Part shown: positions 6,466-59,100 of the stretch, one piece after another | How positions within the stretch are numbered: the first letter of the stretch is position 1 | Layout: the number at the start of each line of letters is the position of its first letter | Origin: Strigamia acuminata | Taxonomy: Eukaryota | DNA: 64,000 bases | Reading direction: 5' to 3' | NCBI GenBank assembly: GCA_949358305.1 | Contig: OX442314.1 | Span: 5,580,001 to 5,644,000 of the forward strand | Program-made: the position numbers and the translations under genes | The notes under the pieces: model-generated | Seen by the model: only the letters and a program-made list of their open reading frames with translations | Database searches by the model: none | Told to the model about the DNA's origin: nothing

Positions 6466-6503
6466 CGTTGACCCCTTTTTGAGTCACCATAGAAAGGCTC
6501 ATC

Positions 6504-13375: not shown

Positions 13376-13444
13376 CTTGCAAAGAAGATTATTGATTAAT
13401 ATTTTGACTGTAGTTACTGTATAGAATATATTATGCATTCTTAC

Positions 13445-22483: not shown

Positions 22484-22546
22484 CTGAATAAATCAAATTT
22501 AAGTTAAATTCAATCTTTTAATTTTTAAAAATGACTTATTTTTTAC

Positions 22547-23041
22547 CTTCATTTTTGTGCTGACAATCTCTTTGGTTAAATTGGTCGCTCTCCAAAGTTC
22601 ATCCATATTATAAGTTGGAATTTTCATCAGACGTTTCATCATGTTTCCACATTCATAGTTGGGGGAATACAGATCATCCACAACATTTGTAAAAGTTTTA
22701 TTCCAAAGCCTGACCATTTCTTTCGTGTTACAACTACAGATCATCAAATTTGGTAACACAATATCTTCCGATTTGCTCATTACGTCAACAGCCGTAGGAT
22801 AACTTAAGTAATGCATTACTCTATCGTAGGTCTGATAAGTGAGCATGCATGTGCAAAATAGGAGCAAAATTAGCCAAAATATATGACGTCTGCTCCAATG
22901 TTTTCTACTGCTTACGAAATCATCCAGACCAATTAAACTGCAGTTTGGTTTTTTGGCGTCATCTTTTATCACACGTTGAATTTCTGTGCGTAGTTTTCTT
23001 AATCTTCGCATATTTCTTACCATCAAGTAATTTTTCTGCAT
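22547..23041 (-). CDS. Gene A exon 1: N-terminus, TM1 and beta1-beta2 of DEG/ENaC repeat 1
   Basis: NCSLIGL...RRHIFWLILLLFCTCMLTYQTYDRVMHYLSYPTAVDV...LPNLMIC; donor AAG|GTAAAA, phase 0. Confidence 0.85.
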
Positions 23042-24318
23042 TATACTGCTGTATTTTCTGTACTTTAGGCCACACCACAGCTGAGTTTAGACTTGTCTCT
23101 TTTCGTCTGTTGGCTATAATGTCTTATTTCCCCTGATAACGGTTTCCATGACGATTATTGATTCATTTAAGCTTATTTCTTGCTAAAGCGGCTGTATAAT
23201 GTAGACGTTGGGCGGTGATTGCATTTTAAATCGTGTTCTCTTTATCGTCAATTTTGATCTGAGAATGTATATCGGTCATGGTTCACACCCAATGACCTAT
23301 ATATTTCTTGGTAACGTTACTGAATAATTTAGATGTTGTTCATATAATTACGTTCCGCACACACTGCTTGAAATTTCATATTTACAAAATTTAAATGTAA
23401 GTAAATATGAAGTGTAAATTTATATTTAACGCGTTAAGTAAATATAATGTTAAATGTATGTTAAATATGAACGCAAAAGTTATATTTAATTCATATTTAC
23501 CTATAGTAAATTTAATTTATGCGAAAGTTATATTTAATTCATATTTACTTACAGTTAATTTAATGATACTAAAAATAACAATATGGTTTGCCTCGACGAG
23601 TCCGATCGCCGACACTTCCGCCGCCTACAGACACCCGTTTGCCACTTGAATAATGGCTGAACGCAGAACAAATTGACATATAATTTTTTTTTGCCTTATG
23701 TTCGGCTACGCGTCCACTCGCCCGCCTGCCCTCGTCCCTACAGCTGCCTGAAACGTCCATACAGTCGCCCGCCCGCCCACCCTCGTCTGTCCACTCCTAA
23801 GTGGAGAAATTTGTTGACCATTTACAGGAAGTTACGTGAAACAGAGAGAAGGTTGAAACTAAAATTTTACTTTTTAAATGATTGAAAATGGTTAAAAATG
23901 CAAATAATTTGTCATGTTTTTTTTTGCTTTTTTGGGTCAAATTGGACGTTCTTTCTCAAATTCGGATTGAAAACACGAGGAAGTGGTCAAAATATAAGAA
24001 ATATTCGTGTAAAATGTGAATAAAATTCCTTTTTAAGCCGAATTTTGGTTGAAATGATAGAAATTGATGCCAATTATTATCAAATGTATAATAAAAAAAT
24101 TTATTTTCTCACGAAGTGTAACGAAATTCACTAAAATTATTCAAATTATTCAAATTTCTTTTGTAAAACGCTGGAAATGCGAATAAATAAACTTATTTCT
24201 GCATTTTTGGGCAAAATTTCTGACAATTTGTGACAGAACTCAACAAAAAATTCGTATTTTCGGCCATTTTTGTGTTAAAACTAACAGGACCTGCAACAAC
24301 ATATCACCGTGGCAATTG

Positions 24319-32672: not shown

Positions 32673-35210
32673 AGGAATGTCACCTTTTTTATCCATTAAA
32701 AAAAGGTATAAAAGTGGAGGTTAGGAACAAGGGTAACTTGTCCCAACTTGGTCAACAATCTCCACGTTAAATCAAAAACTCCTTTCCTTAGACAGAGAAA
32801 AACGTTTCACAGATATGGACACATTGAATGTTGGAGGTCGACTGAAGAACTTGGAGAAGTTCTACAGTGTAGGGGCTGCCATATCCTGTTTACATTAATA
32901 AACACAGTCTATGGCAGGTTGGTTGACCACCCAGCTTGATGTGGTTGTAACTGTTGGATCATACCATGGCGGGTAAGACCATATCTCCGTCACATGGTTT
33001 AGACACAACAAAACTCTCACAAACACTGAACCTTCAAACATCAATAAATCATGTAAGAAGTTAACACCTCATCAATTCAAAATTACAATCAACATTACTA
33101 CAGATAAAAACAAACTCTATTTTTAAACATAAAATGATCTAACACAATATGTATAACTCTAAAATACACTTTTCAAAGTAAAGAAAATAAAAGCAATACA
33201 CCAGTGACCTCTGGGGTGACGACAATGGGCGGATGATTGGTAGTGATGATTACATTTCTATGAAATGAATCCTAATATTTGTTGTCGTGAAATAGTGTAG
33301 TGACCACCAAAATGAAAAAAGTTCACTTTTTTCTTTTAGAACAAAATCAATTTCTGTGTGAGTGGTCAAGATAGTCCGGTCAGTTTTTCTGTAACAACTT
33401 GTATCAAATCAATTGTATAATATCAACAAATAAATGATGTTACTTACGAGTAAAAAAAGAAAAAAAATTTCTATTGTCTGCATATTTTTTATTCGAAACA
33501 AACATGAAATAAATGACTCAATAATCGTCGTAGAGTTACCATGGGGAATGAAACATTACAGTAAACAGGAGAGAAGAGACAAGTCAAAACACATCTCTGG
33601 TCTGGCCCCAAATACGAAAAAAACAGCAGTATAATGCAGAAAAATTACTTGATTGAAAGAAATATGCGAAGATTAAGAAAACTACGTACAGAAATTCAAT
33701 TCATGATAAAAGATGACGACGACAAACCGAACTGTAGTTTAATTGGTTTGGATGATTTCGTAAGCAGTAGAAAACATTGGAGCAGACGTCATTTATTTTG
33801 GCTAATTTTGCTCCTATTTTGCACATGCATGCTCACTTATCAGACATGTGACAGAATAATGCTTTACTTAAGTTATCCTACGGCTGTTGATGTAATGAGC
33901 AAATCAGAAGATATTGTGTTACCAAATTTGATAATCTGTAGTGGCAACACAAAAGAAATGGCCAGGCTTTGGAATAAAAGTGATGACCATTCAAGCCCCT
34001 ATGAATGTTCAAACATGGTCAAACAACTGATGGCAATTCCAAATTACAATATGGATGAACTTTGGAAAGCGACCAATTTGACCAAAGAGATAGTTAGCGT
34101 AAAAATGAAGGTAAAAAATATAATTAATCTTTTACATGAAAACTCCTAATTTAATTTTGCAGGGATTTTCAAACCAAACAGTTGTTCTTACGGAAACTAA
34201 CACTGCATTTGGAATATGCTCAACATTTCAATTTTGTAATTATAAACAAAAAAAATACTGTATATACTTGATAATACAAATATGATTTATTGGTCTAGCC
34301 GTAGCGTGTGGTGACCCAGTTGGATAAGTGTCCCCCCAGAGCGGATACTTGTCCTCTGAGTCACTGTGATTGAAGAGTCGTTCCCCCCCGAGTTGGCTCC
34401 ACCTCCCCATGGCAGGTGTGTGCCCCGAGGGGGAGGAAGCGGCTGGTGGTCAGCCCCCATTGGTTGATCGCCGGCCCTTCACCCCACTGCATAAAAGGCT
34501 GTGTTTCCCGCCTAAAGTCAGAACTTACACAAACGACACCAAGAACACAGCAACTACCTCACCGTCAGGCCAACTTCAACTACAAGTTAGGATTGATCGA
34601 GGATCGCTGAGTAAAGTGCAAACTGTAACTCTCACGAAGTCACTTGCGAGCTATTCCTGCGAAAGCACGAGAATAGCCCTTGTGAAATCACCCAGAATAA
34701 TCGCCCAGACGATTATTCGCCGAAGTAAGTGTCCGAGCGCTTTGTAGGGAACCCCAAAGTTCCTAGACGAGGCCTCTGCGACGCTAAACCAAACCCTAGA
34801 CAACAGGCACGGATAGAAGACTCGAGAGAGCATTCCACCGCGTCCGTGAAGACGAATCCGTGACGAATTAACGACAACTCGAGACGCCGCCTTTGTTCCG
34901 CCGACCACGCGGAATCGACGACGCCATCTTGAGAAATCCTTTGTTCGACGCTGACCACGTCGACTCTAGAATTATTACTGAGTGTATTTTAAAGGCATAA
35001 AGCCTGGTGAATAAATTAACTGTTTATTTACATACATTTGGTATTCATTTGGGTATTTGCATAATTGATCACAGGTAAAGTATTACACGTTAGCGCTATT
35101 TAAACCTATACAAAGTAGGACGCGACACGTGGGGGTCTGTCCGGGATTTAGAAATAAATCTCAAATCTGAACTTGTGATCTCTCAATAAGATAACCCAAA
35201 TCGAAAGAAA

Positions 35211-38200
35211 ATGTCAGACAAAGACGAACAATCCACGTCTGAAACCGAGCAGAGAATGCCCGAGAAGGGAAAAAGGACCTCCGACTACCACCTAAGGTCG
35301 GATGGCCCCGTCCCTGAAATGTCCGCAAAGGCGAAAGCCCGAGCGAACAAAAGGAGAGCGAAGGCGCAGAAAGAGGAGCAAGCTGCATCGCTCGCGGCCC
35401 TAGACGGGCCAGAGCGAGAGCGGGTTCCCTTGAATATGCAACCCTTCGAAGATACCGATACGGAAGCCCTAGAAAATCGAGAAGAAATTCGCGACGTATC
35501 ACCAGGACGAGTATCGATATTGATGACCGAGGAGACGAACCAAGCTCCAAAAAAAAAAACGGTCACGGTCGGCACAAACCCATCGCCACCAACGGCTCAG
35601 ATGTCCGTAGAGCAAACCCCACGGAAAAACGACGGCGGGACCCCGATAACCCCCCGAGTTACGGCGAGTCCTGCAGTTGTTTCCTTCGAAGTATCTCACC
35701 TAATTCGGTTGACGCAGCAAGCTGCCCAGCTGAAAGCGATGATAGACATTCCAGTAGGAACGTCAGTCTGGGAATCGATTACCCTACTCACTGACGCTAT
35801 CTGTGCGGCACAAGCCCCGACGCCGGTCGCAAGACCAGCAGCGGAGACGCCCATGCCCCAGGTAACGCCCAGTGACACCGGAGGTTTTGCACCAGACCCC
35901 AACAAAGCACTTCACGAATCCAGAGAGAAAGCCCGCGAAGAAGCCAGACAAGAAGCGATTAATCGCCAACGAAGACTGAGCGCAGAGCGGCGAGAACTCT
36001 GGAGGGAAGAGGAAGAAAGGGAGCAACGCGAGAGAAGAACCACCGAGAGAACAGAGAAACTAGTCCAAAAAATGAGGGAAGAACGAGAAGCTAAAATTCG
36101 AAAAGAATGGAACGCAACAGTAGAAGGGCGACATCGAGAAGCTCAAGAGTACGAAGACCAATTTCAAGCGCTCGTAGCTCAAAGAAAAGCAGAAAAGCTA
36201 CAAATGTTGCGAAAAGAAGCCATTTTACAACATCAGAAATGGGAAGAGAAACATCGCGAGAGGCTGAGAGAAGAGGAAGCCAGAAAAGAAAAAGAGCAAT
36301 TTCTAAAAGAGAAAGAAGAATGGGAACGAGACAGATGGACCGAAGAGTACAAAGCGAAGAAGCAAGCCATAATAGACGAGCAAAAAAGATGGGAAGCCGA
36401 AAACTGGGAAAAAGAAACGGAAAAGTTCCAAAAAGAGTACGAACAAGACGACTCGGACAGGAAGAAAAATGAAGAAAACCTGAAACGGAAACCAGAACCC
36501 CCCAGCGGCTCTGATACCGACACAGGAGAAGGTGCAACAAAGCCGGCAAAAACGGCGAAAAGGGGGAAATCTCGAAAGAGAGACGAGTCGGTCCCAAAAA
36601 CAAAGGACCGTCACCCCTCAAAAAGATCCGAGACGGGAGCAGCCATCGACGCGTTACTCGAAAAGAAAAACGCAAATAAAAATCGGGAACGCCCCGAAAG
36701 CGAGGAAAACAGATGGCATTCTTTTTACGAGAACAACGACGGAGAGGAGCCGCCGCCATCCGGAGGCTCGAAAGAGAAGAAGGCTGGCGGAGAGACCCCA
36801 CCGAGAGGGCCGAGGTTTCACCCCCAAGGAGATCCCTCCGAGCCCTCCGATTCGTCGGACGACGACAACCCGAGTCGACCATCTACAGGGAGGAGTCGAG
36901 AGGGCAGCGATGGGCACCGGTCGAACCGACCGAATGCTTCAAACCGCTCTTCCCGAAGCTCCAACCCTCGCTCCGAAGAAGGGAACTTTCAGGACTCATC
37001 TGGCCGCCATTACACGATGGCTGAGCTAGGCCGAGCCCTGCTGAACTCTTTCAGAAGAGAAGGAATTGATCTAGGCCATCCAGGCGACGAGCATAACCGC
37101 GCAGGAGAGAGGGTTAAGCGCAAATATGGCGTACGCAACGAACCAAGCGGTGAAGCCACGGGTAACATCCGCTGGCAGCACTATATTCAAATGCGATTTG
37201 ACGGTTCGTGGAAAGCCGGAGACCGCTTCCTGGACGAAGTAATGCGTATCAAGAAAGCGACAAAAGCCACCGTCGCCGACATGCTAACCCACGGTCTAGT
37301 GGAACTAACCACGGGATCAGCTCGAGAATGGTATCAGGGACTGAAAAACCCAACCTGGGACGATTTTCTCGTCCGTTTCGATCTCCGATACGGCGAGACT
37401 CCAGACGAGATCAGTAACAAACTACGTGGTCTACGACAAGCCCCAGGAGAAACATTAGCCGACTACGACGCCCGAGCGAAACTTCTGTTTGCAAGAGCGC
37501 CGTATGAAATAAACCCCGCTGGTTTTACGATGATCTTTTACGGAGGATTATCGGCCCACTCGCAAAGAATTCTGCTAGACATGCGTGCACCCCGCACTGG
37601 CGATTACCAAGATGTCAGTAACTATCTTCTAACAAACACGTTAGAAATAGAACAGCGGTATTACGCCACTCTGCCCCCGGAAGAAGCTGACGCGCACGAG
37701 AAACGGTTGCAGACGAGCGCCGAACGTCACAAGACCTCAGAGAAATTAATGAGACCAAGTGAATATTTGAGCGGCATAATGAGTCTCACCGAAGCATCCT
37801 TCGGACAAATGCTGACGCCTAAAACAGGCAGTACTCTTCCAGCCAACCCGATAGCTGCCCCAAAGAAAGCACCGGCAGCAACGGCGATGCAGGTGACCTC
37901 GACGGACTCCACCCAGATGGAGAAAGTCGAAGAGGCAACACCTCTCGCCACGGCTAAAGAAGAAGAGCCAGCGTCAAGCGACGAGGAAGCCCTAAATGAG
38001 CACCTCGAAAACTTATCGACGGGATGCGACGATCAAGGACCCTATTTGCACCACGCGCACCGAGCCCTAGCAATCGCACAATTCAGAGCATTTACGAATT
38101 GTAAATGAACTTCACGATGGGTGATGAATTGTAAAACAGCAAAAGCGACGGTCGAAATAAAACTTAACAACTTTTAATTTTACTTGAGTTGAAAAATGAC

Positions 38201-41200: not shown

Positions 41201-44200
41201 TTTATCTTTGATTTGAGCAACTGTTTCTTCATATTTTTCACGCATGTTGTCGAGATGTAGTTGAATTGAGTCGTTTAAAAGGTAGGGACTTGATTTGACT
41301 CCGAATACTACTCTTTTCTGGCGCATAACTCTGGGCTTCACAAACTGCCGACCGTCCCATTCTTCCGGTGTCCAAAGGAAACGAACGAAATCCCGATCTG
41401 CCATTCTCAGCAATAGCTGTAAAAACGCCTTTTCTATGTCCGAAAGATAAGCAAATGGTTCTTTTCGAAACAAAATCAGCAATATAAGTATTTCTGGCAG
41501 CAAATTAGGACCGCTGTCCAGGCAATCGTTCAGTGAAAGTTCATTTTTTCCTTTAGCTGAGGCATCGAAAACGATCCGAATCTTTGTCGTGACGCGATCT
41601 TCTTTAATAACGGCTCGGTGTGGCATGTAGTACGAATTTTCATGTTGCGGTTCATTAACTTCTTCGATTATTCCATCACGTATTTGATCGTCGAAAATTT
41701 GTTTGTAGGCGGCGTAGAATCCTGGATTTTTCTTAAATTTTCTTACCAGATTCCAAAAACGTTTCTCAGCAATTTCGTAATTATTGTGAAGTTTTCTCGG
41801 TTCGACCAACCACGGCAATGCGACGACGTATCTTCCTTCTTCTCTCGTCACTTGTTCGCGAAAACGAATTGCGCAGGAATTTCGATCGGTCAATGTTTCG
41901 TCTTCACTCTCGTGGCGAATGCCGATGGATTCGAGCTCCCAGAATTTTTTCAGACTCTCGTCCAGTCGCTCCTCGAGACGCACACTGCACACGCGGGTGA
42001 CTAGTGTGGACATTGTCGTGACATTTATTGATGACCCCATCAAAGTCCAGCCAAATAGCGTCTCTATGGCGATCAAATTTTCCTCGATTTTTCGTATGCA
42101 TCCCGTAAGTATCTTCGCGATACAGTCTGCGCCTAAAAGAATAAAAATATCGCAATTAGTATTGTTTCCAGAATCAATCACGATTTGATCGCGTTCGAGG
42201 GCGGCTCGTAAGCCAGCCTGCAATTTGGTACAAATGGGTTTTGTAATCCATGGCGTTTCAAGCGCATTAACGCAGAGCGATCGATTTTTGTCGCCAACAT
42301 TGCACAATTTGAGTTCAAATCGATTTCCTTTAGTGTTCAATGGTGTCTGATTTCCAAAAGTGTGCACGCTTAAATGTTCCTCTCCATTCGGCTTTAAATG
42401 CATGTCTTTTGCCAAACTAGCCAGTACGAAGGAACTTTGGCTTCCGGGATCGATCAAACATTGCACGGTGGACTCACGAGATTCGTTTTGAATTTTTACG
42501 AATATTGTTGCCAATGTTGTGGTCGGAGGTTGAGCGTACGCAGCGAGATTTTCGTTGGTTGATACGAGCAGAGTGACTTTTTCTTTTGGTGTCTCAGATG
42601 GTCCTTCGCACACGAGTTGGTTGTGATGGCGTTGACACAGTTTACATGTCACACGGTAGGTGCAGTTTCGAGACGAATGTCCCTTTTTTAAGCATTTGAA
42701 GCAGCGACCTTCCTTTTTGACGAATTCTTTACGCTCGGTTGCCGTCGTTAAACACCCGTCACGCTCATGAGTCTTGTTGCAAAACATGCAATTGCTGATT
42801 GTTGTGCTCAAAACACGAGCAGACGGCACGCGGTTGTGAGTTTTGTGAACAGGCTTGTCCACATCAACTTTTTCAGGTTTGCTTTTTTCTGTTGAGCGGT
42901 GAAGATCTTGAAAGTTCTCAATTTTATTGTGGTGCACGAGTTCGTTACGCACCATGTCCAACAAATCTTTAGCTTTGTATTTCCCGTCGGGATATTGACG
43001 TGAAAATTCCAGCGAAATTTGTCGTGGCACTAGTCCTAGAATGAGTGGACACGCTGTTGCGTCAATGGCATCAACATTCATATTTGCCGCATTCAGACCG
43101 CGTACGTGTGTTTCACACTCATCGTACAATTTTTGAAGAGGAATAGGATCGAGAATATCACGTACGGGTTTCATTTTCATTAGGGAGCGTAAATGTGCGC
43201 TGAGAAGAACATCTGTACGGCCAAAGCGTTCGAGCAACAATTTTTTAGCGATCGGATAGTTTTCATTTGTTGGCGGTAATCCCTTCAACACGAGTGCTGC
43301 TTCTCCATCCAAGAGCGACTTTAAATACACCAATTTACTTTGCGCAGAAATGTTCGTTTTGGTGTCAATTGAGATCTCAAAATTACCCCAAAAGTCAGCC
43401 CAGTCCAGCGGATCTCCTTTGAATTTAATTGTGTCGTACTTGGGCAGTCGCATGGGTGAGTCTTGTGGCACACTCGCGGTCCCGTGGTAATTATTTGTTA
43501 TCGGCGGGAGTACAGGTGTGGTTGGGGGCGCGATGAAAGTAATTAGCGCCTCGTCGATTTCGACACCACAATCAATAATTTTTTCGTGATATTCAGTCTC
43601 GGATCGAGTGATTTCTTCATCTATCTCTTGTTCGTCGGTGAGCATGGCCAAGATTTTGGCGTCGAGCGATTTGAGTTCATTTGATTTTGCTTGTAGATGC
43701 ACTTTTATCTTTTTTAAATCGAGTTCATTTATAGGTATACCAGCGAGAATTGTTTTGGCCTTCGTTATAGTTGTGGTGGTCAGCCTACGGGTTACTGCAC
43801 GCTGAGCCTTCAACACGGCGAGGTCGTCGGCCATTGTTAAATTCGAGATGCTACTTGCAGTTTTTTCAGATTGAAGTTACGAGTTTGTTCCCTGGAAAGA
43901 TGTCCCGGGTTTCGGCACCAATTTACGAATTGTAAATGAACTTCACGATGGGTGATGAATTGTAAAACAGCAAAAGCGACGGTCGAAATAAAACTTAACA
44001 ACTTTTAATTTTACTTGAGTTGAAAAATGACATTCTTTTTCACAAGTGACGCGTGGTCAGCGAGTTGAGGGTGGAATGTGTGGTGCATAGAAAAAACGGG
44101 GTCTACATCCGGTCAACAAGGGCCGAAAGATACCCAATTTACATAAAAGAGGGCTCTCGAAAAGACCCTCGAGCGATTTATATAACACAAAAAGAACACA

Positions 44201-44720
44201 GACAATTTAATGCAATAACACAACTGAAAAGTCAGCAAAAACCATGATGAAACACAATTAAACACGATAATACACAATAAGGCACAATGAATGAAAAAGA
44301 ACACAAAACACAAAACAAAACACAAAACACTTAATTGTAATAAACACAAATCAATCACTAAATTCAATCGATAATTAAACTAAGACAAAATTACTAAAAT
44401 CAAATACATGAATAAACATTAAAAACAAATTAAATCAGTCTAGATTTTACAGAGCACACGTGCAGGCAACAAAAGCGAGAGGGGCATTGGGAGGAAAAAG
44501 ACGATTCCCGACGCCCTTCGTCCCGAAAAAACCGGGATTCACTCCCACAGGGGATAAAAGTAACATCAAATGTTACAGCTGCGGAGAATACGGTCACTAT
44601 TCCGACAAATGCGAAAAAACCGTCAAAGAAAAGGGCATCATGCAAACCTTGATGAAAATGATGATGGAGTTGAATACTAATCTGGCAAAAAACTCCCAAG
44701 CGCAGGCGTCGCCGAAATAA
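35211..44720 (+). CDS. gag: Gypsy gag (~1047 aa), split by the BEL insertion: 35211-38090 + 44457-44720
   Basis: Removing BEL and one GAGCA TSD joins ..QFRA|HVQATK.. in frame; retrotransposon-gag motif (GSAREWY..TWDDF..LRQAPGETLADY) and C-terminal CYSCGEYGHYSDKC. Confidence 0.9.
38091..44451 (-). mobile_element. BEL/Pao LTR retrotransposon, full length
   Basis: 530-bp LTRs 38091-38620 and 43922-44451 appear identical; TSD GAGCA; tRNA-Phe PBS TGGTGCCGAAACCCGGGA 43920->43903. Confidence 0.95.
38642..43834 (-). CDS. BEL/Pao gag-pol polyprotein (1730 aa)
   Basis: F.GDPLDW..FW, triple Cys/His knuckles, LIDPGS protease, RIVFDAS, FYVDD, LHLFCDAS, IDFAGP/SDNA/WGGFWER integrase. Confidence 0.95.
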   Translation of the reverse strand: MADDLAVLKAQRAVTRRLTTTTITKAKTILAGIPINELDLKKIKVHLQAKSNELKSLDAKILAMLTDEQEIDEEITRSETEYHEKIIDCGVEIDEALITFIAPPTTPVLPPITNNYHGTASVPQDSPMRLPKYDTIKFKGDPLDWADFWGNFEISIDTKTNISAQSKLVYLKSLLDGEAALVLKGLPPTNENYPIAKKLLLERFGRTDVLLSAHLRSLMKMKPVRDILDPIPLQKLYDECETHVRGLNAANMNVDAIDATACPLILGLVPRQISLEFSRQYPDGKYKAKDLLDMVRNELVHHNKIENFQDLHRSTEKSKPEKVDVDKPVHKTHNRVPSARVLSTTISNCMFCNKTHERDGCLTTATERKEFVKKEGRCFKCLKKGHSSRNCTYRVTCKLCQRHHNQLVCEGPSETPKEKVTLLVSTNENLAAYAQPPTTTLATIFVKIQNESRESTVQCLIDPGSQSSFVLASLAKDMHLKPNGEEHLSVHTFGNQTPLNTKGNRFELKLCNVGDKNRSLCVNALETPWITKPICTKLQAGLRAALERDQIVIDSGNNTNCDIFILLGADCIAKILTGCIRKIEENLIAIETLFGWTLMGSSINVTTMSTLVTRVCSVRLEERLDESLKKFWELESIGIRHESEDETLTDRNSCAIRFREQVTREEGRYVVALPWLVEPRKLHNNYEIAEKRFWNLVRKFKKNPGFYAAYKQIFDDQIRDGIIEEVNEPQHENSYYMPHRAVIKEDRVTTKIRIVFDASAKGKNELSLNDCLDSGPNLLPEILILLILFRKEPFAYLSDIEKAFLQLLLRMADRDFVRFLWTPEEWDGRQFVKPRVMRQKRVVFGVKSSPYLLNDSIQLHLDNMREKYEETVAQIKDKFYVDDLLGCAKSEGEVEKIFHEARKLMMEAHMPLRKWQSNSQSLRELFAREIPSDANLVDADKHSTSVLGLIWNFITDHLLLEIGEWADAQDQLKESKRLIVQSVARIYDPLGFATPFVIVGKLMFQELWTRNIGWDSPLPPDISKQWSSWRQQVVLLRKIAVPRHYSAGQQSNPDRELHLFCDASPKAYGVVVYIRTKNETSVEVTLCMSKSRVAPLKSLTLPKLELMGALLLSRVAVKLKKLEIQRVFYWTDSSITYFWIREQQKKSNPFVSNRVREIRTNTEVACWRHCPGKVNPADKLTRGMEADKLVQDIEWWSGPEWLKKDETHWPQKFDEETESNFEEEIEEIDTRVNVTRSSEEAIFDIEKYSSWTKVKRITAWILRFCHNSRKIETVIGPLKTEELETAEIYWLRSIQKQRFSEEIYSLKNSTKLKSDSPLASVAVVLDQNEIIRIDSRIRFNTGIENFVSPIVLDSNSPAVKLIVEDCHHRTLHGGLGNTLSEFRAKYWVKKGRKFIKTLISRCVTCRRVNAKLMTQTVGLLPADRVNRAEPFQIIGIDFAGPLYTKNGKKTYIALFTCAVVRAVHLELVSDLTTEKFILAFKRLIARRGVPGIVYSDNAKTFKRAEKDLSLFINSFSHELFQGFLSKQKIQWKFIVELAPWWGGFWERLVKTVKLSLKKVLARSSLDFEELSTVLTEVEAAVNSRPITYVTDDPLEQEPLTPSHFLTGGRLITLPDVYSPESRVDNSFRPELVKRWKLRQRLINLLWRRWTHEYLVELREFRRVRTSKEVQIGDLVLIQEQGQPRMSWKMARVSNTFIGRDEKIRSCELTLPEGKTLRRPVQRLCSLEASD

Positions 44721-44738
44721 ATTCAGCTTCGTCTGCGC
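44687..44738 (+). promoter_or_regulatory. -1 programmed ribosomal frameshift signal (gag->pol)
   Basis: In-frame slippery heptamer A AAA AAC 44687-44693, 6-nt spacer, stem GCGCAGGCG...CGTCTGCGC; the -1 frame is open from here into pol. Confidence 0.8.
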
Positions 44739-47700
44739 CAGCCGCGGAAATTAAAAAGAAGAAATATCACACTGGACCCGCAGGTCATGCCTTGGCAGAA
44801 GCACAAATCAAAGATCGCATGCAAACAGTTCCGAAGAAGGAAGAAAAAGTGACGCTGACGAGTATGCAAGTGAGAACGAAGCCGGACGTCGACATGGATT
44901 GGACGGACCTTCCGTTCAATCTGGAGGTCGAACCTCAGAAGCTACGAGTATTTCACTGCAACGTCACGAAAACGCATTGTGAGACTCTGTGTATGCTGCC
45001 AGTGGAGATAGAAAACCAAAAATTGTTCGGTCTGCTGGATTCAGGAGCGGATCGTTCATTCATATCCGAAGATATAGTAAAGGACTTGGATATTGGAAAA
45101 AAAGTGGCACAAGTGAACGCGAACGTAGAATTACTCACCGCCAACGGCTACGTCAAGCCGAAGGGCGTAGTTCGCATCATGATCGACTGGAAAGGGGGGA
45201 ACCTGTCCCATCCCTTCATAGTCTTGCCATCCCACGACAAAGTATTCCTCCTAGGGATGGATATCATGGCAAAACTGAAGATTCAGCCAAACCCGATAAC
45301 CCGTTCATGGAACTGGATAAGTCCCGAGGGAGAACGGCCAGTCCCAGTAGTTCCCCAAAAATTACTGGACGAAGCCAAGGACAAAGAGGAATATGGACGA
45401 GGATTGCGAAAATTCGTCCAAGATTACGATTTCGCAGCCTTCACTCTGGAATTACAGAGGAGTAACGTCGTGGACACACTGGTCGAGGAGGCAGCACTGC
45501 GCGTTAACGAGGCATCGCTACTAAGGCGAGTGCTTCGAAAACATGAAAGGATTCTGACCAAGACACCTGGTCGAACGACAGAAGCAACCCACGAAATAGT
45601 CTTAACCACAGACAAGCCGATTCGAGTGCCTTACAAGGGGATGAACCCCCAGAAAAGAGACATTGTGACGCAAATGTGCCAAGACATGCTCGACAAGGGC
45701 ATAGTAACTCAAGCGCTGGGCGAATACGCGATGCGGATCGTCCTGGTAATGCGTCCAGGCTCGGAACCTCGACTATGCATTGATTATCGTCCCCTGAATG
45801 CGATAACAGTTATAGACCCGATTCAGATGCCGTCTATAGACTCGATTCTCCGGGAGCTGAGCCCATTCAAGTGGGTAACCACCATGGACCTGTCAAAGGG
45901 GTATTGGCAAGTGGAGCTCAAACCCGAAGACAAACTGAAAACGGCTTTCTACTCCCCGATAGGAAGATTAATGTTCAACGTGATGCCGTTCGGGCTTGTA
46001 AACGCCCCGAGCACGTTCCAGAAGTTAATCGAAAGCGTGTTGGGAGATATGCTTCACGACTTCGTGTGGGCGTATCTCGACGACATCATAATAACGTCGG
46101 ACACATTCGAAGAGCATATAGACCACATCGATAGAGTGGTCTCTCGCCTAGCCAAGGCGGGACTCCACATCCATCCAGGGAAGAGCAAGTTTTGCAGAAA
46201 AGAGCTTGCCTTCCTAGGATATCAAATAGGAGTCGAGGGAATCGCGATTGACCCCGAAAAGGTCAAAGCAATAAACGGATTCCCCGCCCCCGAAGATATA
46301 AAAGGTGTCCAGAGATTTATGGGCATGGTCAATTTCTTCGGCCGACTACTCGCTGGTCTGGCTGAGGTGGCCGCGCCTATAACGGATCTCTTACGAACGG
46401 ATAAAGAGTTTGAGTGGACGGTCCAGTGCGAGGCCGCATTTAGCACCATCAAGCAAATGCTGGCTGACGTCGAAAAGATGCCATTGCCGGACCTAAACCG
46501 ACCGTTCGTGTTGCACACCGACGCGAGTAAAATCGGACTGGGTGCAGCCCTTCTGCAGACCCACGTGTACAACGGAATCTCGCAGGAAGTACCCTGTATG
46601 TTTATAAGCAGAAAAATACAGGGCGCAGAAAAAAATTACACGGCAACGGAACTGGAATGCCTAGCCGTAATTTGGGCAGTTCGGAAATTTCGCGACTATC
46701 TGGAGTACACGAACTTCGAGGTTCAGACAGATCACCAAGCACTAAGCTGGTTGATGAAGCTCAAGGAACCTTCCGGCCGACTCGCACGATGGCAACTGGA
46801 GTTAATGGCGTGCGATATAACAATTACGTACCGCCCCGGGAAGTACAATCATGTGGCCGACGCCCTCTCAAGAGCCCCAGCCTCTGACCCCCAAGGTCCA
46901 GACGACGACGGCGAGGACGACACCCACCTCTTGTACTGCCCGACTCCACGAAGAATATGGCGTTTGCGGAAGGCGAACGAGCTACCAGTGATGGAGCCCG
47001 AAGATAGAACGTTTTGTGGTTTTTGGACTCGAACATACCAGCCAGCTGGGACGAACGATTCAACACCCGAAATTCAACCTCCACCCCCCGGAGAAACCCA
47101 CAAAACACTACTACGCGCCTTCACAGCAAAAATTGAAGAAAAAACGCAATACGCTCCACCCACAAGACGTGAGTTCGTCGAACACCAGGCAGCCGACAGA
47201 AAATGTCAAATTATAACGCAATATTTGCTAAACGGCGATTTTCCGGAAGGGATGACAAACCCACACCGCCGAAAGCAGTTCGCCAAAGAGGCAACGAGCT
47301 ACCTCATAGACGATGAACTCCTGGTAAAATACCACCCGACGTTTCAAGACGACCTCAGCGGAGCGGGAAACTCGGTTAAGGTGGTCGTACCGGCATCGCT
47401 GCACACCCGACTGTTGTGGCTGATGCACGGACACCCGCTCGCCAGCCATTCCGGCGTGGCGAGGACCCTTTATCGAGTAAAACAACTTTTCTTCTGGCCG
47501 GGCGCGCGGCAAAAGATAACGAAATTTATCCGACACTGCCCCCGGTGCCAAGCGTGCAGACCGCGAGATAAAGTGGCCAGAAACGCCATGTCTCTCGGAC
47601 CCTACGCACCGTTTGACTGCTTAAGCATAGACTTGATGGGCCCCAAGCCCACAACGGGAAACAGGAACATGTATATTCTCGTAATTATGGACGTGGCCAC

Positions 47701-48823
47701 CCGATGGCCGGAGCTGTACGCCCTCGTGAAGCCCTCGGCTGAAAACATAGTCGAGTGCCTTTACGACGTGGCAATGCGATTTGGGTTTCCCAGAAAACTC
47801 ATTTCGGATAACGGCCCCCAATTCCGATCAAGAATATATAAGGACTTCTGTAGAAAATTTAGAATGGATGCATCGAACACCTCCACGTATAATCCTCAGA
47901 CAAATCCAGTCGAGAGATTAAATAAAGACATAAAATATGCGCTGACAGTATTCACCGATATTCACAATCGATGGGACGAATACCTGCGAGAAATCGCTTT
48001 CAGCATTCGCTCAACCGTGTCAAGAACACGCGAATTCTCACCGGCGTACCTAAACTTCGCCCGCGAATTAAGGATGCCATGGGACCCACGCGTTGCCGAA
48101 GCTGTTAACGTATTAGACCCATCGAGCCCACATGAGTACGTGTGCCGGTTGGAACAGACTATATCCGACACATACCAGCACATGATGGCGCATATTTTCA
48201 ACATGAGAGAGCGAATCGCAGATAAAGAAGGCGACCTCGCTTTCGCGAACTTTAAAGTGAACGATCTAGTGTGGAAGGAGGCACACACGTTGTCCAATGC
48301 AGCGAGGGGCATCGCCGCCGGTTTAGCCGACAAGAGGGACGGTCCCTATGTAATTGTGGCCGAACACGGCGGCAACGCATACCAACTACGCCGCTTAGAG
48401 GACAACAAAAATTTTCAGTCGATACATGGCCGAGATTTAAGGCCATATCTGCCAGAGTTTCCCCAAGAAATCTGGCTGGAAGGTCAGACACACAGCGGCC
48501 AAGGGGGCACCGTGGTCGACACGTTCCAAAAAGCAAATGTAGCTGCAAATATAGCGGAGGACGAGGACGAATTCTTCGACGCCGAATCCCCAGCCGACAA
48601 GGCTCCAGCTCAGCCGGAGCAAGCAATTTCGGAGAGGGAGGAAGCAGAAGAATGTACTTCTGAAATGGAAAATAAAAAAATTAATAACGAGAAAAACGCC
48701 AACACATCGGAGATGAACGAGCAAGTAGAGTCACGATCTACGAGCACGTCGAAAATCAACCTTCGACCACGACGAAGCAATAATCCGTTCATTCGGGACG
48801 GCAAAGTCGTGGGGAAGAACTAA
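44690..48823 (+). CDS. pol: Gypsy pol (PR-RT-RNaseH-IN), copy 1
   Basis: LLDSGA, RLCIDYR, YLDD, TDAS, ADALSR, HHCC, IDLMGP/SDNG/VER, GPY. Confidence 0.95.
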   Translation, partial: KLPSAGVAEINSASSAPAAEIKKKKYHTGPAGHALAEAQIKDRMQTVPKKEEKVTLTSMQVRTKPDVDMDWTDLPFNLEVEPQKLRVFHCNVTKTHCETLCMLPVEIENQKLFGLLDSGADRSFISEDIVKDLDIGKKVAQVNANVELLTANGYVKPKGVVRIMIDWKGGNLSHPFIVLPSHDKVFLLGMDIMAKLKIQPNPITRSWNWISPEGERPVPVVPQKLLDEAKDKEEYGRGLRKFVQDYDFAAFTLELQRSNVVDTLVEEAALRVNEASLLRRVLRKHERILTKTPGRTTEATHEIVLTTDKPIRVPYKGMNPQKRDIVTQMCQDMLDKGIVTQALGEYAMRIVLVMRPGSEPRLCIDYRPLNAITVIDPIQMPSIDSILRELSPFKWVTTMDLSKGYWQVELKPEDKLKTAFYSPIGRLMFNVMPFGLVNAPSTFQKLIESVLGDMLHDFVWAYLDDIIITSDTFEEHIDHIDRVVSRLAKAGLHIHPGKSKFCRKELAFLGYQIGVEGIAIDPEKVKAINGFPAPEDIKGVQRFMGMVNFFGRLLAGLAEVAAPITDLLRTDKEFEWTVQCEAAFSTIKQMLADVEKMPLPDLNRPFVLHTDASKIGLGAALLQTHVYNGISQEVPCMFISRKIQGAEKNYTATELECLAVIWAVRKFRDYLEYTNFEVQTDHQALSWLMKLKEPSGRLARWQLELMACDITITYRPGKYNHVADALSRAPASDPQGPDDDGEDDTHLLYCPTPRRIWRLRKANELPVMEPEDRTFCGFWTRTYQPAGTNDSTPEIQPPPPGETHKTLLRAFTAKIEEKTQYAPPTRREFVEHQAADRKCQIITQYLLNGDFPEGMTNPHRRKQFAKEATSYLIDDELLVKYHPTFQDDLSGAGNSVKVVVPASLHTRLLWLMHGHPLASHSGVARTLYRVKQLFFWPGARQKITKFIRHCPRCQACRPRDKVARNAMSLGPYAPFDCLSIDLMGPKPTTGNRNMYILVIMDVATRWPELYALVKPSAENIVECLYDVAMRFGFPRKLISDNGPQFRSRIYKDFCRKFRMDASNTSTYNPQTNPVERLNKDIKYALTVFTDIHNRWDEYLREIAFSIRSTVSRTREFSPAYLNFARELRMPWDPRVAEAVNVLDPSSPHEYVCRLEQTISDTYQHMMAHIFNMRERIADKEGDLAFANFKVNDLVWKEAHTLSNAARGIAAGLADKRDGPYVIVAEHGGNAYQLRRLEDNKNFQSIHGRDLRPYLPEFPQEIWLEGQTHSGQGGTVVDTFQKANVAANIAEDEDEFFDAESPADKAPAQPEQAISEREEAEECTSEMENKKINNEKNANTSEMNEQVESRSTSTSKINLRPRRSNNPFIRDGKVVGKN

Positions 48824-49199
48824 AAATAAAAGAAAATGTGATAACATGGAGCGGAGGCCTTGTAAAATAAAAAGATTTACTTACGAGAGCTGCTGCACAT
48901 GTTGAGACGCGAAAATTTGGCTAAGTCCAAACTTCGCAACGAATTGTCGCAGTCACCACTAACAGACGAGAAGTTATGACGTATCGGGCGACCACGTGAC
49001 AATAAAACCACGCGGTCGACCCCGTAGCGTCATTGCCAGCACGGCGGATCTCGCAAAGTACGAGACGCGTTCGAGACCCACAATTCTCAGCGTCGATAGG
49101 CCCAGTTTCCGACTGTTTTTAACACGACGAGACGCGTTTTTTGCTTCTCCCCAAAGAGAAAACAAAGACCTCTCAAAAACTTCATTTTCCTAAATTGAA

Positions 49200-52100
49200 A
49201 TGGCCGATCGACGCAACCCACGATTAGAGCCGAGCGCATCGTCGAGAGACGAGAGCGACGGCCTAATCGTAAACGCTGAAGAAGATGAGAATTGGGACGA
49301 ACAACCGCCGTTGCAGGTAAATTAGTGTGATTTCCCCAGAGAAATCACATAATTCTTTGAATCTGTTGCATCCAACCCAGATTGGAGCGTGACCTGTGAC
49401 TGATATATTTCTTTCTGTTTTATTATTGATTTAAGGCTGGCTAAAAACCCGAGAGTGGACCCAGATTCACCTCGGAGTCAAGGCCGCCAAAAAACTAGAA
49501 CAAAGGAAGTGTTCGCGGAATGGCGTCGCGGCAAACCAAAACCAAAACTAAAGGTTTTCTTTCTTTTAAATTTAAACATCGTAATAAATTAAAATACGAT
49601 TAGAGTTAAAATAAAAAAGTTTAACGTAAAATTAAGATTTTAACGATCGGTTCTGCCTGCGACCCCTTCCTAAAAGCGGATCACCTGAGTTCAAAAGTAG
49701 TGTTGGATCAGCGCTACAACGGCGGAGATCATCGCAGAACTGCGAAACAAGAAAATAAGACCGACGGCCGCAACAAAAGAAAGGAGTTGCTGCCACCGTC
49801 GATCTTGAGCATATTTCTGATCCCCATCGTTAACTGGGATTTATTATATTAATCTTGTGATCTAAAATTATTCAGGTCGACCCGCTAGAATCGTGGGACG
49901 CCCTGCCGTCGACGGCGTCAACCGCCAACAACATCTTTCGCGGAGCCCTGCCGATTTACCTGCGGCAGGCCTATCCTGCGGAGACCAGCGCCTGGAAAAT
50001 TCGATTGATGTATTCCAGGACCCTCGAAGAAAAATTCGAGCGATCAAAAACGCTGGTCGAGTGCATGACGAAGGAGATGAGGGAGCGAGTGGGGCCGCGG
50101 ATCCCACACGATTCGGATCCGCCGAGCCCCGTTTACTCCGGGTATCTGGAAGAGGCTTACCCAGGCACGGTGGCCGAGCTGCACACCTCCCACAGGTGGC
50201 GCGAGGCCCCGACCTTGGCAGCCCGCCAGAGAATAGTGGACGACGAGATCGAACGCTTAAAGCGCACCGAGACTCACGGAGTAACCCGAGTTCTCGAGAG
50301 AAACGGTTTCTCCCCCGAAGAAATCCGTAGATGGCTTCGCGACATCGAAGAAGACCATTTGACGCCCAGATGGATACCTCCGGCGAATTTTACGGCCACA
50401 CAGTCTGAGATGTGGCAGTTATACCACGCTGGTATCCTGGGAAGTCGCCGCCATCACAGAAGATCGAAGCGTCCGGCGGAGTCCGCCCCACGCGGACCCG
50501 CACGAAGAAGACAGGCCGTCTCCCCAATAGAGGCCGGCCCGTCAACGAGTCGCGACTACCGCAGCCGCTCGAGCAGCTCCAGTTCCCGAACTCGAGTTGT
50601 CGTGCGCTCGGAGTGTCGCCGAGTAGTAACGCTCGAGCCTGCCTCGCCAGACGACGCGCGGGCTGAGCGAACAGTCGAAACTTCCGCCCACTGGGCTGCG
50701 AGGACCGAGACACACCAAGATCGAGGAAAGAAAAGATCCTCGTTGTTCATGGCGATTACCACACAGTCGTCAGATCAATCCTCGTCGCGACGAACCGTCT
50801 CATCACACCAGAGACCGAATTCTCCGACGGACGTCCCCCAGAGGACGGCCCAACGAAGATCCGTCGCAGCCAGCACCCGGAGGAATCGGAAGCGCAAAGT
50901 ACGTCAGAAGTTGCGAGCACAATCCCTGATAGCTAAGGGATTAGAGAAGGAGCGAGAGATGGCCGCCGCAAAAAGGTCCGAACCCCAGAGTCTCGGACCC
51001 ACGGCTGGACCGTCCAGGCGCCAAGCAGAGATTGATTTGGGAGAGTTGACGGAAGAGCAAATGTCCCCAGATGAGTCGGACAAAGATGGGCCGGTTACAA
51101 AACAGGATCTGGCCGTAGCATTGAAGAACGCCTTCCGAGGATACGCGGCCAACCGGCCGTCGGGCTCAACACCGGCTGTGCCAACCGCGCTTGTGCCCCC
51201 ACAAGTGCAATCGCGATGGCCGCCACTCCTCGAGGGTACAAACCCAGCCGTGACCGCGTGGACCCCTCCCCGGATGATTCCGGTGGGAGATCCAGCTCCG
51301 AAACGGGTCAGATACGATAATCTACCCGGGCTGGGCCGTCCACCGTCACCCCCAACGCCACGAGTGTGTCGACCTTATCGCAACGCCGAATGGTACGCAC
51401 AGCGAGAGATGGACGCTCGATGCCGGCGTGAAGCGGCCTATCCTCCACTCGGCGAGCTACAGGAATACCTGGCCGAATACGAGAACCCCGCGATTGCCGA
51501 GTTGGCCATACGACAGGCCGACGCCGCCCAGACTCACCACATCAATTGGGCGATCGAACAGATGCGGACGCTGTCACAACAATTCAGTGACAATCCGGAC
51601 CGCGCTCACCCCTGCCATCGGAGCAGCTTGAATTTGGCCGTGACGAACGTCATGGCCCAGCTGTTGTCCCTGGGCGTCTTCTTGGACAGTCGGCAGGCTA
51701 TGGCAGCCTGGACAATTGTCGACCGTGAGGGAGTTCACCTTCCTCGGGCGTTGTACCAGGTATGGGCCGGATGGACTCCTGAGCCCGCCTCGCTACGCTT
51801 CGACCTGGCCCGGAATACGGAGAACCCCGGCTTGCAGTTTTCGAAGATGCGTTCGTTAGCATTCCGCTACCGGAACCCCGGAGTCCACCCTTCCTTGTTG
51901 CGAACAATTCGGGAGGTTCCGGAGATACTAGGAACGGCAGCGAGCCTCCCACAGGCCATCGAGACCGCCCCCCCAGAGGCGGCGGTCCAACCATACATAC
52001 CGACCCCAAAGCCGGTATTCCCGAAGGAGAAGCGGTACGCGAATCGACCCAAATTGATTCCGAAGCGCTCCAACCGAGGACCGCGAACTCCTCCGCTGCC

Positions 52101-52662
52101 CTCTCCTTCGCCACCAGCGGCAGAGCTGGCCGCTCTTGCAACAGAGCCGGCTACGCCACCGTTGGAGAGTCCAATGGAGATTCCACTTCCTCCATCGCCT
52201 CCGCCGCCCCCAGCAGCGCAGCTTTATTTGAGGCTGGGAGTGGAATACCCCTTCCTTCAGATGTCGGAGTTCACGCGACAACGCATCATTGACTCCGATG
52301 ATCACGGCGAGTCGATCCTCAAATGGCTGACCAGAGAGGCCCGATCTACCATGGACGCCGTCTTCCATCGTCGAATCTTGCGAGCCCACCGGAAACCCGG
52401 ATCGAGCGCCGAGTCGCGAAGGATCCGGCTCGTTCCCGACCGATTCCCGGCATCCACCCGGATTTGGATCCACGAACGTACGGGGCTGATTGGCGAGCCG
52501 GTCGGCGGTCACCCGCAGTACTTCATCAACGAGCGACAGAATCCTGCGGATCTGACAACCTCTCTGCCCCCGGATTTACCACCGCCGCCCCCGGCAGTGC
52601 CACCAGTGATCCTCCGCCCATGCAGAGGAGTGCTGCCGGCTCTTCGCAGAGGAGAGCGATAA
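49200..52662 (+). CDS. Gypsy accessory ORF3, probably spliced (49200-49316 + 49876-52662, ~967 aa), function unknown
   Basis: 885-aa ORF intact in both element copies; frame open upstream to acceptor TTCAG| at 49875; upstream ATG exon ends CAG|GTAAAT in phase 0. Confidence 0.75.
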
Positions 52663-53673
52663 AATTGAGATCGCTCCGATCCGAGATCGAAGCTGGAGGA
52701 GGGACGTGTGGTGACCCAGTTGGATAAGTGTCCCCCCAGAGCGGATACTTGTCCTCTGAGTCACTGTGATTGAAGAGTCGTTCCCCCCCGAGTTGGCTCC
52801 ACCTCCCCATGGCAGGTGTGTGCCCCGAGGGGGAGGAAGCGGCTGGTGGTCAGCCCCCATTGGTTGATCGCCGGCCCTTCACCCCACTGCATAAAAAGCT
52901 GTGTTTCCCGCCTAAAGTCAGAACTTACACAAACGACACCAAGAACACAGCAACTACCTCACCGTCAGGCCAACTTCAACTACAAGTTAGGATTGATCGA
53001 GGATCGCTGAGTAAAGTGCAAACTGTAACTCTCACGAAGTCACTTGCGAGCTATTCCTGCGAAAGCACGAGAATAGCCCTTGTGAAATCACCCAGAATAA
53101 TCGCCCAGACGATTATTCGCCGAAGTAAGTGTCCGAGCGCTTTGTAGGGAACCCCAAAGTTCCTAGACGAGGCCTCTGCGACGCTAAACCAAACCCTAGA
53201 CAACAGGCACGGATAGAAGACTCGAGAGAGCATTCCACCGCGTCCGTGAAGACGAATCCGTGACGAATTAACGACAACTCGAGACGCCGCCTTTGTTCCG
53301 CCGACCACGCGGAATCGACGACGCCATCTTGAGAAATCCTTTGTTCGACGCTGACCACGTCGACTCTAGAATTATTACTGAGTGTATTTTAAAGGCATAA
53401 AGCCTGGTGAATAAATTAACTGTTTATTTACATACATTTGGTATTCATTTGGGTATTTGCATAATTGATCACAGGTAAAGTATTACACGTTAGCGCTATT
53501 TAAACCTATACAAAGTAGGACGCGACAAGCGTCTAGCAAATCATTTGACCGGAAATTATTAACAGCAAATATTAAAAAAACTGATGACTCCATATGCCCT
53601 ATAGCTCCGTACCTAGTAGGCTAATCTTACTAAATTATTTGTAATGTATCAGAAAACGCAATTTTTCTTTTTA

Positions 53674-56189: not shown

Positions 56190-59100
56190 TTATCGCTCTC
56201 CTCTGCGAAGAGCCGGCAGCACTCCTCTGCATGGGCGGAGGATCACTGGTGGCACTGCCGGGGGCGGCGGTGGTAAATCCGGGGGCAGAGAGGTTGTCAG
56301 ATCCGCAGGATTCTGTCGCTCGTTGATGAAGTACTGCGGGTGACCGCCGACCGGCTCGCCAATCAGTCCCGTACGTTCGTGGATCCAAATCCGGGTGGAT
56401 GCCGGGAATCGGTCGGGAACGAGCCGGATCCTTCGCGACTCGGCGCTCGATCCGGGTTTCCGGTGGGCTCGCAAGATTCGGCGATGGAAGACGGCGTCCA
56501 TGGTAGATCGGGCCTCTCTGTTCAGCCATTTGAGGACCGACTCGCCGTGATCATCGGAGTCAATGATGCGTTGTCGCGTGAACTCCGACATCTGAAGGAA
56601 GGGGTATTCCACTCCCAGCCTCAAATAAAGCTGCGCTGCTGGGGGCGGCGGAGGCGATGGAGGAAGTGGAATCTCCATTGGACTCTCCAACGGTGGCGTA
56701 GCCGGCTCTGTTGTAAGAGCGGCCAGCTCTGCCGCTGGTGGCGAAGGAGAGGGCAGCGGAGGAGTTCGCGGTCCTCGGTTGGAGCGCTTCGGAATCAATT
56801 TGGGTCGATTCGCATACCGCTTCTCCTTTGGGAATACCGGCTTTGGGGTCGGTATGTATGGTTGGACCGCCGCCTCTGGGGGGGCGGTCTCGATGGCCTG
56901 TGGGAGGCTCGCTGTCGTTCCCGGTATCTCCGGAGCCTCCCGAATTGTTCGCAACAAGGAAGGGTGGACTCCGGGGTTCCGGTAGCGGAATGCCAACGAA
57001 CGCATCTTCGAAAACTGCAGGCCTGGGTTCTCCGTATTCCTGGCCAGGTCGAAGCGCAGCGAGGCGGGCTCAGGAGTCCATCCGGCCCATACCTGGTACA
57101 ACGCCCGAGGAAGGTGAACTCCCTCACGGTCGACGATTGTCCAGGCCGCCATAGCCTGCCGACTGTCCAAGAAGACGCCCAGGGACAGCAGCTGGGCCAT
57201 GACGTTCGTCACTGCCAAATTCAAACTGCTCCGATGGCAGGGGTGAGCGCGGTCCGGATTGCCACTGAATTGTTGTGACAGCGTCCGCATCTGTTCGATC
57301 GCCCAATTGATGTGGTGGGTTTGGGCGGCGTCGGCCTGTCGTATGGCCAACTCGGCAATCGCGGGGTTCTCGTATTCGGCCAGATATTCTTGTAGCTCGC
57401 TGAGTGGGGGATAGGCCGCTTCACGCCGGCATCGAGCGTCCATCTCTCGCTGGGCGTACCATTCGGCGTTGCGATAAGGTCGACACACTCGTGGCGTTGG
57501 GGGTGACGGTGGACGGCCCAGCCCGGGTAGATTATCGTATCTGACCCGCTTCGGAGCTGGATCCCCCACCGGAATCATCCGGGGAGGGGTCCAAGCGGTC
57601 ACGGCTGGGTTTGTACCCTCGAGGAGTGGCGGCCATCGCGATTGCACTTGTGGGGGCACAAGCGCGGTGGGCACAGCCGGTGTTGAGCCCGACGGCCGGT
57701 TGGCCGCGTATCCTCGGAAGGCGTTCTTCAATGCTACGGCCAGATCCTGTTTTGTAACCGGCCCATCTTTGTCCGACTCATCTGGGGACATTTGCTCTTC
57801 CGTCAACTCTCCCAAATCAATCTCTGCTTGGCGCCTGGACGGTCCAGCCGTGGGTCCGAGACTCTGGGGTTCGGACCGTTTCGCGGCGGCCATCTCTCGC
57901 TCCTTCTCTAATCCCTTAGCTATCAGGGATTGTGCTCGCAACTTCTGACGTACTTTGCGCTTTCGATTCCTCCGGGTGCTGGCTGCGACGGATCTTCGTT
58001 GGGCCGTCCTCTGGGGGACGTCCGTCGGAGAATTCGGTCTCTGGTGTGATGAGACGGTTCGTCGCGACGAGGATTGATCTGACGACTGTGTGGTAATCGC
58101 CATGAACAACGAGGATCTTTTCTTTCCTCGATCTTGGTGTGTCTCGGTCCTCGCAGCCCAGTGGGCGGAAGATTCGACTGTTCGCTCAGCCCGCGCGTCG
58201 TCTGGCGAGGCAGGCTCGAGCGTTACTACTCGGCGACACTCCGAGCGCACGACAACTCGAGTTCGGGAACTGGAGCTGCTCGAGCGGCTGCGGTAGTCGC
58301 GGCTCGTTGACGGGCCGGCCTCTATTGGGGAGACGGCCTGTCTTCTTCGTGCGGGTCCGCGTGGGGCGGACTCCGCCGGACGCTTCGATCTTCTGTGATG
58401 GCGGCGACTTCCCAGGATACCAGCGTGGTATAACTGCCACATCTCAGACTGCGTGGCCGTAAAATTCGCCGGTGGTATCCATCTGGGTGTCAGATGATCT
58501 TCTTCGATGTCGCGAAGCCATCTACGGATTTCTTCGGGGGAGAAACCGTTTCTCTCGAGAACTCGGGTTACTCCGTGAGTCTCGGTGCGCTTTAAGCGTT
58601 TGATCTCGTCGTCCACTATTCTCTGGCGGGCTGCCAAGGTCGGGGCCTCGCTCCACCTATGGGAGGTGTGCAGCTCGGCCACCGTGCCTGGGTAAGCCTC
58701 TTCCAGGTACCCGGAGTAAACGGGGCTCGGCGGATCCGCATCGGGTGGGATCCGCGGCCCCACTCGCTCCCTCATCTCCTTCGTCATGCACTCGACCAGC
58801 GTTTTTGATCGCTCGAATTTTTCCTCGAGGGTCCTGGAATACATCAATCGGATTTTCCAGGCGCTGGTCTCTGCAGGATAGGCCTGCCGCAGGTAAATCG
58901 GCAGGGCTCCGCGAAAGATGTTGTTGGCGGTTGACGCCGTCGGAGGCAGGGCGTCCCACGATTCTAGCGGGTCGACCTGAATAATTTTAGATCACAAGAT
59001 TAATATAATAAATCCCAGTTAACGATGGGGATCAGAAATATGCTCAAGATCGACGGTGGCAGCAACTCCTTTCTTTTGTTGCGGCCGTCGGTCTTATTTT

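Follow-up and report, generated by a model that had tools for sequence, protein, structure and literature searches.

The window, the whole 64,000-nt stretch of Strigamia acuminata contig OX442314.1 analysed here, carries two copies of an LTR retrotransposon: copy A on the forward strand (Table 1) and copy B, inverted, from about 55326 to past the window end. TG...CA LTRs, a target duplication and a pol in the order PR-RT-RH-IN place the element in Gypsy/Ty3. The LTRs of copy A agree with each other at 822 of 823 aligned positions, and a 4-nt target duplication (AGCG) flanks it on both sides; this insertion must be very recent. The BEL/Pao element that breaks its gag (38090-44450, minus strand) has an intact 1744-codon ORF, near-identical LTRs and a 5-nt target duplication, GAGCA. 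A CCHC knuckle lies in the gag portion beyond this insertion (from about 44451), and the N-terminal ~600 residues of Gag (35211-37100, plus strand) are charged and of low complexity and include a long run of coiled-coil character. Pfam held no match to the 959-residue Gag stretch as a whole. The nearest pol that we found is 44% identical in its RT part. Gypsy pol proteins P0021 and P0097-P0099 are recorded under a Rickettsia endosymbiont of Ceutorhynchus, so that either host DNA contaminates this record or the record contains an insertion. The primer site of the element, TGGGGGTCTGTCCGGGAT, is presumably tRNA-Pro-like. An assignment to the Osvaldo lineage is not supported: mosquito Osvaldo elements, in the portion of the source that covers them, are primed by tRNA-Lys and have LTRs about 1-2 kb long (PMC3286476), and neither the LTR of only 821 nt nor the primer site fits.

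The retroelements of the window are nested within a cluster of DEG/ENaC (ASC) host genes, represented by three pieces (12577-13395 and 22502-23086, minus strand; 33565-34146, plus strand); the introns of one host gene there are short (about 69 and 98 nt) and AT-rich. Remnants of a related LTR family, ~80% identical, lie at 5249-6467 and 11957-12126 (both minus strand) with no internal genes in the window; they retain AATAAA and CAG|GTAAAG but lack the GTAAGT of 34725. At 16621-21513 (plus strand), an intact Copia polyprotein holds a methyl-CpG-binding domain (PF01429, E 1.8e-8) in the interval between integrase and RT, the arrangement of CopiaMBD. That family is known, according to the relevant part of its description, solely from one centipede and two spiders (PMC6673714), and the present element may widen its range. 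This Copia element and the DEG/ENaC genes, with their short introns, would fit an arthropod host.

Table 1. Features of the Gypsy element and its third gene (window positions)
Feature	Position	Strand	Remarks
5' LTR, copy A	34307..35127	+	TG...CA ends; 821 nt; equals the 3' LTR at 822/823 aligned positions
Candidate leader donor CAG|GTAAAG	35066..35085	+	putative; intron from 35075; 3' of AATAAA 35010; kept in the ~80% LTR family
gag, copy A	35190..38108	+	split by the BEL/Pao insertion at 38090
pol, copy A	44681..48823	+	Pfam domains arranged as in Gypsy: protease, RT, RNase H, integrase
Candidate leader acceptor	49137..49156	+	putative, from sequence; pyrimidine tract plus AG
First coding exon	49200..49316	+	proposed; acidic; 117 nt (39 codons) from its ATG; ends in phase 0 at donor CAG|GTAAAT
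Possible 8-nt microexon	49381..49388	+	from frame arithmetic alone; weak donor; 47-nt downstream intron
Candidate middle exon	49436..49553	+	118 nt, basic; weakly supported
GC-rich island in intron	49646..49810	+	GC 0.52; two predicted hairpins
Third-gene main exon	49876..52662	+	928 codons plus stop
Conserved block 1	49888..50199	+	P0092: 30% identity over 104 aa, pairwise E 7e-13; score 146, 0/300 shuffles
Basic NLS-like run RRNRKRKVRQK	50878..50910	+	sequence; in the low-complexity linker
Conserved block 2, predicted helical bundle	51448..51828	+	P0092: 23% over 120 aa, pairwise E 3e-6; score 83, 0/300 shuffles
Polypurine tract	52695..52704	+	sequence reading
3' LTR, copy A	52707..53527	+	AATAAA near 53411
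Third ORF, copy B	56190..58991	-	intact; same length as in copy A; no indel

Between pol and the 3' LTR lies a third gene. The preliminary description placed an 885-residue ORF here, open from 49876 and ending about 45 nt before the 3' LTR; this ORF is real, with its count from the first ATG (50008) corrected to 884 codons and the distance from stop to LTR measured at 44 nt. From stop to stop (49861-52662), the frame spans 933 uninterrupted codons, 928 of them from the acceptor TTCAG|49876, and across the region the remaining five frames hold 13-29 stops each. It was also said to be intact in both diverged copies: intact it is, with no indel between them, but 54 changes in 2787 nt (1.9%) amount to modest divergence only. 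Contigs from two public runs of one study match 44500-53600 in 2525 and 8720 records (a depth that is not a copy number), some of them less than 90% alike, so this Gypsy family has many variants. In these contigs, none of the 12 listed indels (of 29) shifts the frame of the third ORF, and one of them inserts an extra codon where the stop lies. Contigs of low depth have gaps and skips within the ORF, and therefore some copies are damaged.

Third-ORF codons of copies A and B differ by 39 synonymous and 14 non-synonymous changes, that is a pN/pS of 0.12 (binomial p 4e-13) and not one near 1, in an estimate made from two copies 1.9% apart; the other two frames give 1.3 and 4.3. The same comparison of pol yields 96 synonymous and 22 non-synonymous changes (pN/pS 0.067), not significantly different (Fisher p 0.31). 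Selection acts on the third gene with nearly the same strength as on pol; the element therefore needs it. Synonymous to non-synonymous changes stand at 10:5 for residues 1-170, 9:1 for 171-500, 16:2 for 501-680 and 4:6 for 681-928, making the C-terminal tail the least constrained part of the protein. At fourfold sites, copies A and B diverge by 0.079 in pol and 0.038 in the third ORF, against an overall LTR divergence of about 0.012; lineages may have recombined, or additional constraint may act. Divergence in the non-coding intron is 7/440, compared with 20/525 at fourfold sites of the ORF (p 0.049) and 46/581 at those of pol.

The third gene is not env. Its product is made up of 12% Arg, 12% Pro and 8% Ser, with Arg-rich runs, 23 RS/SR pairs and 19 SP/TP sites, and it contains the basic run RRNRKRKVRQK that had been singled out as NLS-like. 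A hydropathy scan largely bears out the earlier impression that signal peptide and transmembrane segment are lacking: it detected no signal peptide (the predicted N-terminus is charged) and no C-terminal anchor or hydrophobic segment, the six most hydrophobic 19-mers all falling within block 2, where the top one reaches a borderline Kyte-Doolittle value of 1.65. Cysteines number six (residues 102, 286, 537, 555, 619 and 955) and form no cluster, and there is one N-glycosylation sequon in 967 residues. As had been expected, no named family, env or host, came up in Pfam, PHROGs, NCBIfam or PDB sequences; fold comparison was less telling, the low-confidence predicted structures (pLDDT 42 and 38) giving no specific fold. 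A very diverged env would agree with the position after pol and with probable spliced expression, as in the env-bearing elements covered by PMC12992720 in part. It would also account for three R-x-[KR]-R sites, yet such sites are expected in a protein with 12% Arg, and the missing signal peptide and anchor, the few cysteines and the single sequon largely refute this possibility, to which we give a very small chance indeed.

Among 1,835,955,588 protein representatives, HMMER (E <=0.001) returned a single relative, P0092 (E 1e-7), a hypothetical metagenome protein of 525 aa encoded on one 2921-nt JGI contig. The two proteins share two helical blocks in conserved order (Table 1), whereas similarity of the linker (15/300 shuffles) and the tail (51/300) is not significant. 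The YL..AYP motif, noticed earlier as occurring twice, is indeed there and widens to L-x-x-x-[YF]-P: both proteins use it twice in block 1, 62 residues apart, and the product of the third gene (the third protein) has an extra copy in its tail. Both linkers also carry basic runs, P0092 having two of the form K-K-x-R, and the N-terminus of P0092 passes from acidic to basic to block 1, the same order as in the three-exon model discussed below. A profile built from three sequences found no additional member. From these sequences, the third gene belongs to a small, unnamed two-block protein family; the genomic setting of P0092 may not be a retrotransposon. The literature that we searched does not describe this family, which may nevertheless be annotated in a repeat database of the Repbase type. 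The pN/pS of 0.12 (p 4e-13) and a distant relative with both blocks uphold the proposal of a maintained, non-env accessory protein. Alternatively, the gene might be a captured host gene or mobile-element piece, kept for a reason unrelated to the element's own RNA. Its introns would be simpler to explain if they had been brought along with a gene, and bdelloid LTR elements, in the passages available from PMC5408684, did capture enzyme ORF3s. Against such a capture, no named host family matches the third protein, a single relative in 1.84 billion representatives is unlike a conserved host gene, and selection is near that of pol (Fisher p 0.31); we consider it improbable.

We strongly infer, from the sequence, that the third protein is made from a spliced RNA. 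Block 1 begins 4 codons past the acceptor at 49876 and 40 codons ahead of the first ATG; translation must therefore start upstream and an additional exon is needed. Copy differences in 49876-50007 are synonymous in 3 of 4 cases, and a more diverged contig, one per run, begins to match at 49871, 5 nt before the acceptor, its upstream part being different and AT-rich. The position of block 1 and these contig breaks favour the spliced origin put forward in the preliminary description, the splicing event itself being predicted. The 117-nt ATG exon proposed there is likewise consistent with the sequence: it joins 49876 in phase 0, and its two copy differences (49274 and 49277) are both synonymous. 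Its GC content is 0.56, against 0.28 and 0.38 in the flanks, and none of the 12 listed indels (of 14) within 49120-49990 touches a proposed exon (p about 0.009 for 9 clusters). Lying downstream of pol, this exon fits without gag; the 5' exons proposed here are sequence-based predictions.

It is plausible that the mature message also includes the middle exon. Its GC content (0.51) drops to 0.28 and 0.17 in the flanks, at AG and GT, and its one copy difference is synonymous in its frame. At its end it is similar to the part of P0092 that immediately precedes block 1 (score 11, with 18 of 300 shuffles as good), whereas three alternative upstream models score 0 ahead of block 1. The exon had been called frame-compatible, which holds after a phase-2 partner (the microexon, or a weak donor at 49309 or 49240) and fails on its own, and a diverged contig that tracks it to 49548 has no GT at the expected donor. 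The GC-rich island further downstream is matched by diverged contigs whose AT-rich flanks differ; it forms no convincing exon and no outstanding RNA structure, its hairpins (folding z -1.9) being at the background level of the element, above which folding found no candidate RNA structure in the element. Upstream of 49200, the sequence suggests that the 5' LTR supplies a non-coding leader, whose U5 donor would join the acceptor at 49156, with an internal promoter as an alternative. The stretch 34518-35075 contains no ATG, and both candidate leader pieces are free of ATG upstream of 49200. In both runs, a diverged contig also has a pyrimidine tract ending in AG at the acceptor (loose ends at 49164).

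How would such a gene serve the element? Our leading account, held tentatively, is that the element maintains under selection a gene of an unnamed two-block family which is expressed from a multiply spliced RNA and whose nuclear product helps the element express its own unspliced RNA. The 5'-LTR transcript would very probably run from the U5 donor to 49156, through the ATG exon and optionally the middle exon to 49876, and end in the 3' LTR, giving a product of 967 to 1009 residues. This product is probably nuclear and would carry two helical modules joined by a basic linker rich in Ser, Arg and Pro, in line with the basic NLS-like runs common to the third protein and P0092. Its likeliest single job, which we can propose only with reserve, might be to bind intron-retaining genomic RNA or its machinery and promote export and translation, in the manner of CERV or Rev. 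We suggest an export helper because the apparently strong splice sites of the element would otherwise convert its transcript into third-gene mRNA; the choice of a CERV/Rev-like job rests on these putative sites around gag-pol, the basic Arg/Ser-rich protein with its many proline-directed phosphorylation sites, and the CERV precedent. At 967 residues or more, the protein is far above the size of Rev-like proteins, which argues against an export role, and env-bearing Gypsy elements also splice and are not known to need such an export protein. Neither the sequence searches nor the low-confidence predicted structures connected the third protein with CERV, with Rev or with an RNA-binding family, and a pattern scan found no strict leucine-rich export motif, such patterns being unreliable.

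The same nuclear cues would suit a transactivator or anti-silencing factor, acting either on the LTR or on silencing by small RNAs or chromatin of the host, for which foamy virus Tas/Bet and plant VANC are precedents. Foamy virus accessory genes sit between pol and the 3' LTR, as the third gene does, and a long low-complexity linker with a proline-rich tail would suit an activator or scaffold. Conversely, no DNA-binding or chromatin-reader family was matched in Pfam, NCBIfam or PDB sequences, and a CpG observed/expected of 1.0-1.2 in the element and its flanks gives no sign of methylation pressure. On balance we judge this role rather unlikely in absolute terms, and nearly as likely as export. 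A role in the cytoplasm or the particle would rank behind, and a captured gene after it: the protein might package RNA, assemble condensates, target integration or promote cell-to-cell movement, without being a fusogen. Strongly basic low-complexity stretches can bind RNA in any compartment, one helix is borderline hydrophobic (KD 1.65), and a short helix bears a loose likeness to one of Gag. This last likeness is at chance level (126/1000 shuffles; whole proteins 127/200), hydrophobicity anywhere in P0092 peaks at only KD 1.33, and NLS-like runs occur in both proteins; we regard a cytoplasmic or particle role as unlikely.

A broader picture, which we regard as doubtful, would be that an arthropod-type Gypsy lineage independently evolved the layout of a complex retrovirus, a multiply spliced subgenomic RNA encoding a hitherto undescribed two-domain nuclear regulator of genomic-RNA export or silencing. 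It would be a second such invention among animal retrotransposons beside CERV, and old enough for relatives of ~25% identity. In animal LTR retrotransposons, few non-envelope accessory proteins have a known job, and the literature at hand shows regulation of the element's own RNA for CERV alone. The third gene, intact in young copies and under pol-like selection, defines an unnamed two-block family; if its protein does export or protect genomic RNA, it would be a clean case of retrotransposons gaining retrovirus-like regulation and would provide a new tool to study host nuclear retention or silencing.

Third ORFs that are not env are already known from bdelloid rotifers, plants and nematodes, as the consulted portions of PMC5408684, PMC7264820 and PMC10309623 report. 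The env-F of errantiviruses and the sORF2 of the mdg1 clade occupy the same position as the third gene, and env is expressed from a spliced subgenomic RNA (PMC12992720, PMC13486581 and PMC13524379, in part). In contrast to errantivirus env (PMC12992720), the third protein lacks a signal peptide, a membrane anchor and conserved cysteines. The short upstream exon of env lies before or in gag, whereas the candidate ATG exon of the third gene follows pol (same three sources). Additional sense ORFs of plant LTR elements are conserved and sit between pol and the 3' LTR; the third gene differs in its animal host, in lacking a transmembrane segment and in its own predicted multi-exon structure (sections of PMC7264820). 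The bdelloid ORF3s likewise lie downstream of pol in LTR elements of animals, are not env and typically have spliced messages, but they encode GDSL esterases, DEDDy exonucleases, and coiled-coil or transmembrane proteins, while the third protein has no Pfam family (PMC5408684, in part). What we describe is a real, selected and probably spliced accessory gene, with a known layout and of a family for which we found no earlier description. The precedent worked out in an animal Gypsy element is CERV of C. elegans Cer1, a nuclear protein made from a spliced mRNA and required for genomic RNA export (PMC10309623, as excerpted). Both are non-env Gypsy proteins, CERV translated from a multi-exon spliced mRNA and the third gene likely so. 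Both have a basic NLS candidate, ordered domains on flexible linkers and no homology to known proteins, on what the excerpt says of CERV. CERV is shorter (517 aa), begins with exons that it has in common with gag, in the gag frame, and has a cysteine-rich loop (C4 finger) in its M domain and a G-protein-like domain, whereas the third protein has no cysteine cluster (same excerpt). In the third gene, the candidate coding exons all come after pol, and the predicted protein, of 967-1009 aa, would be all-helical where ordered.
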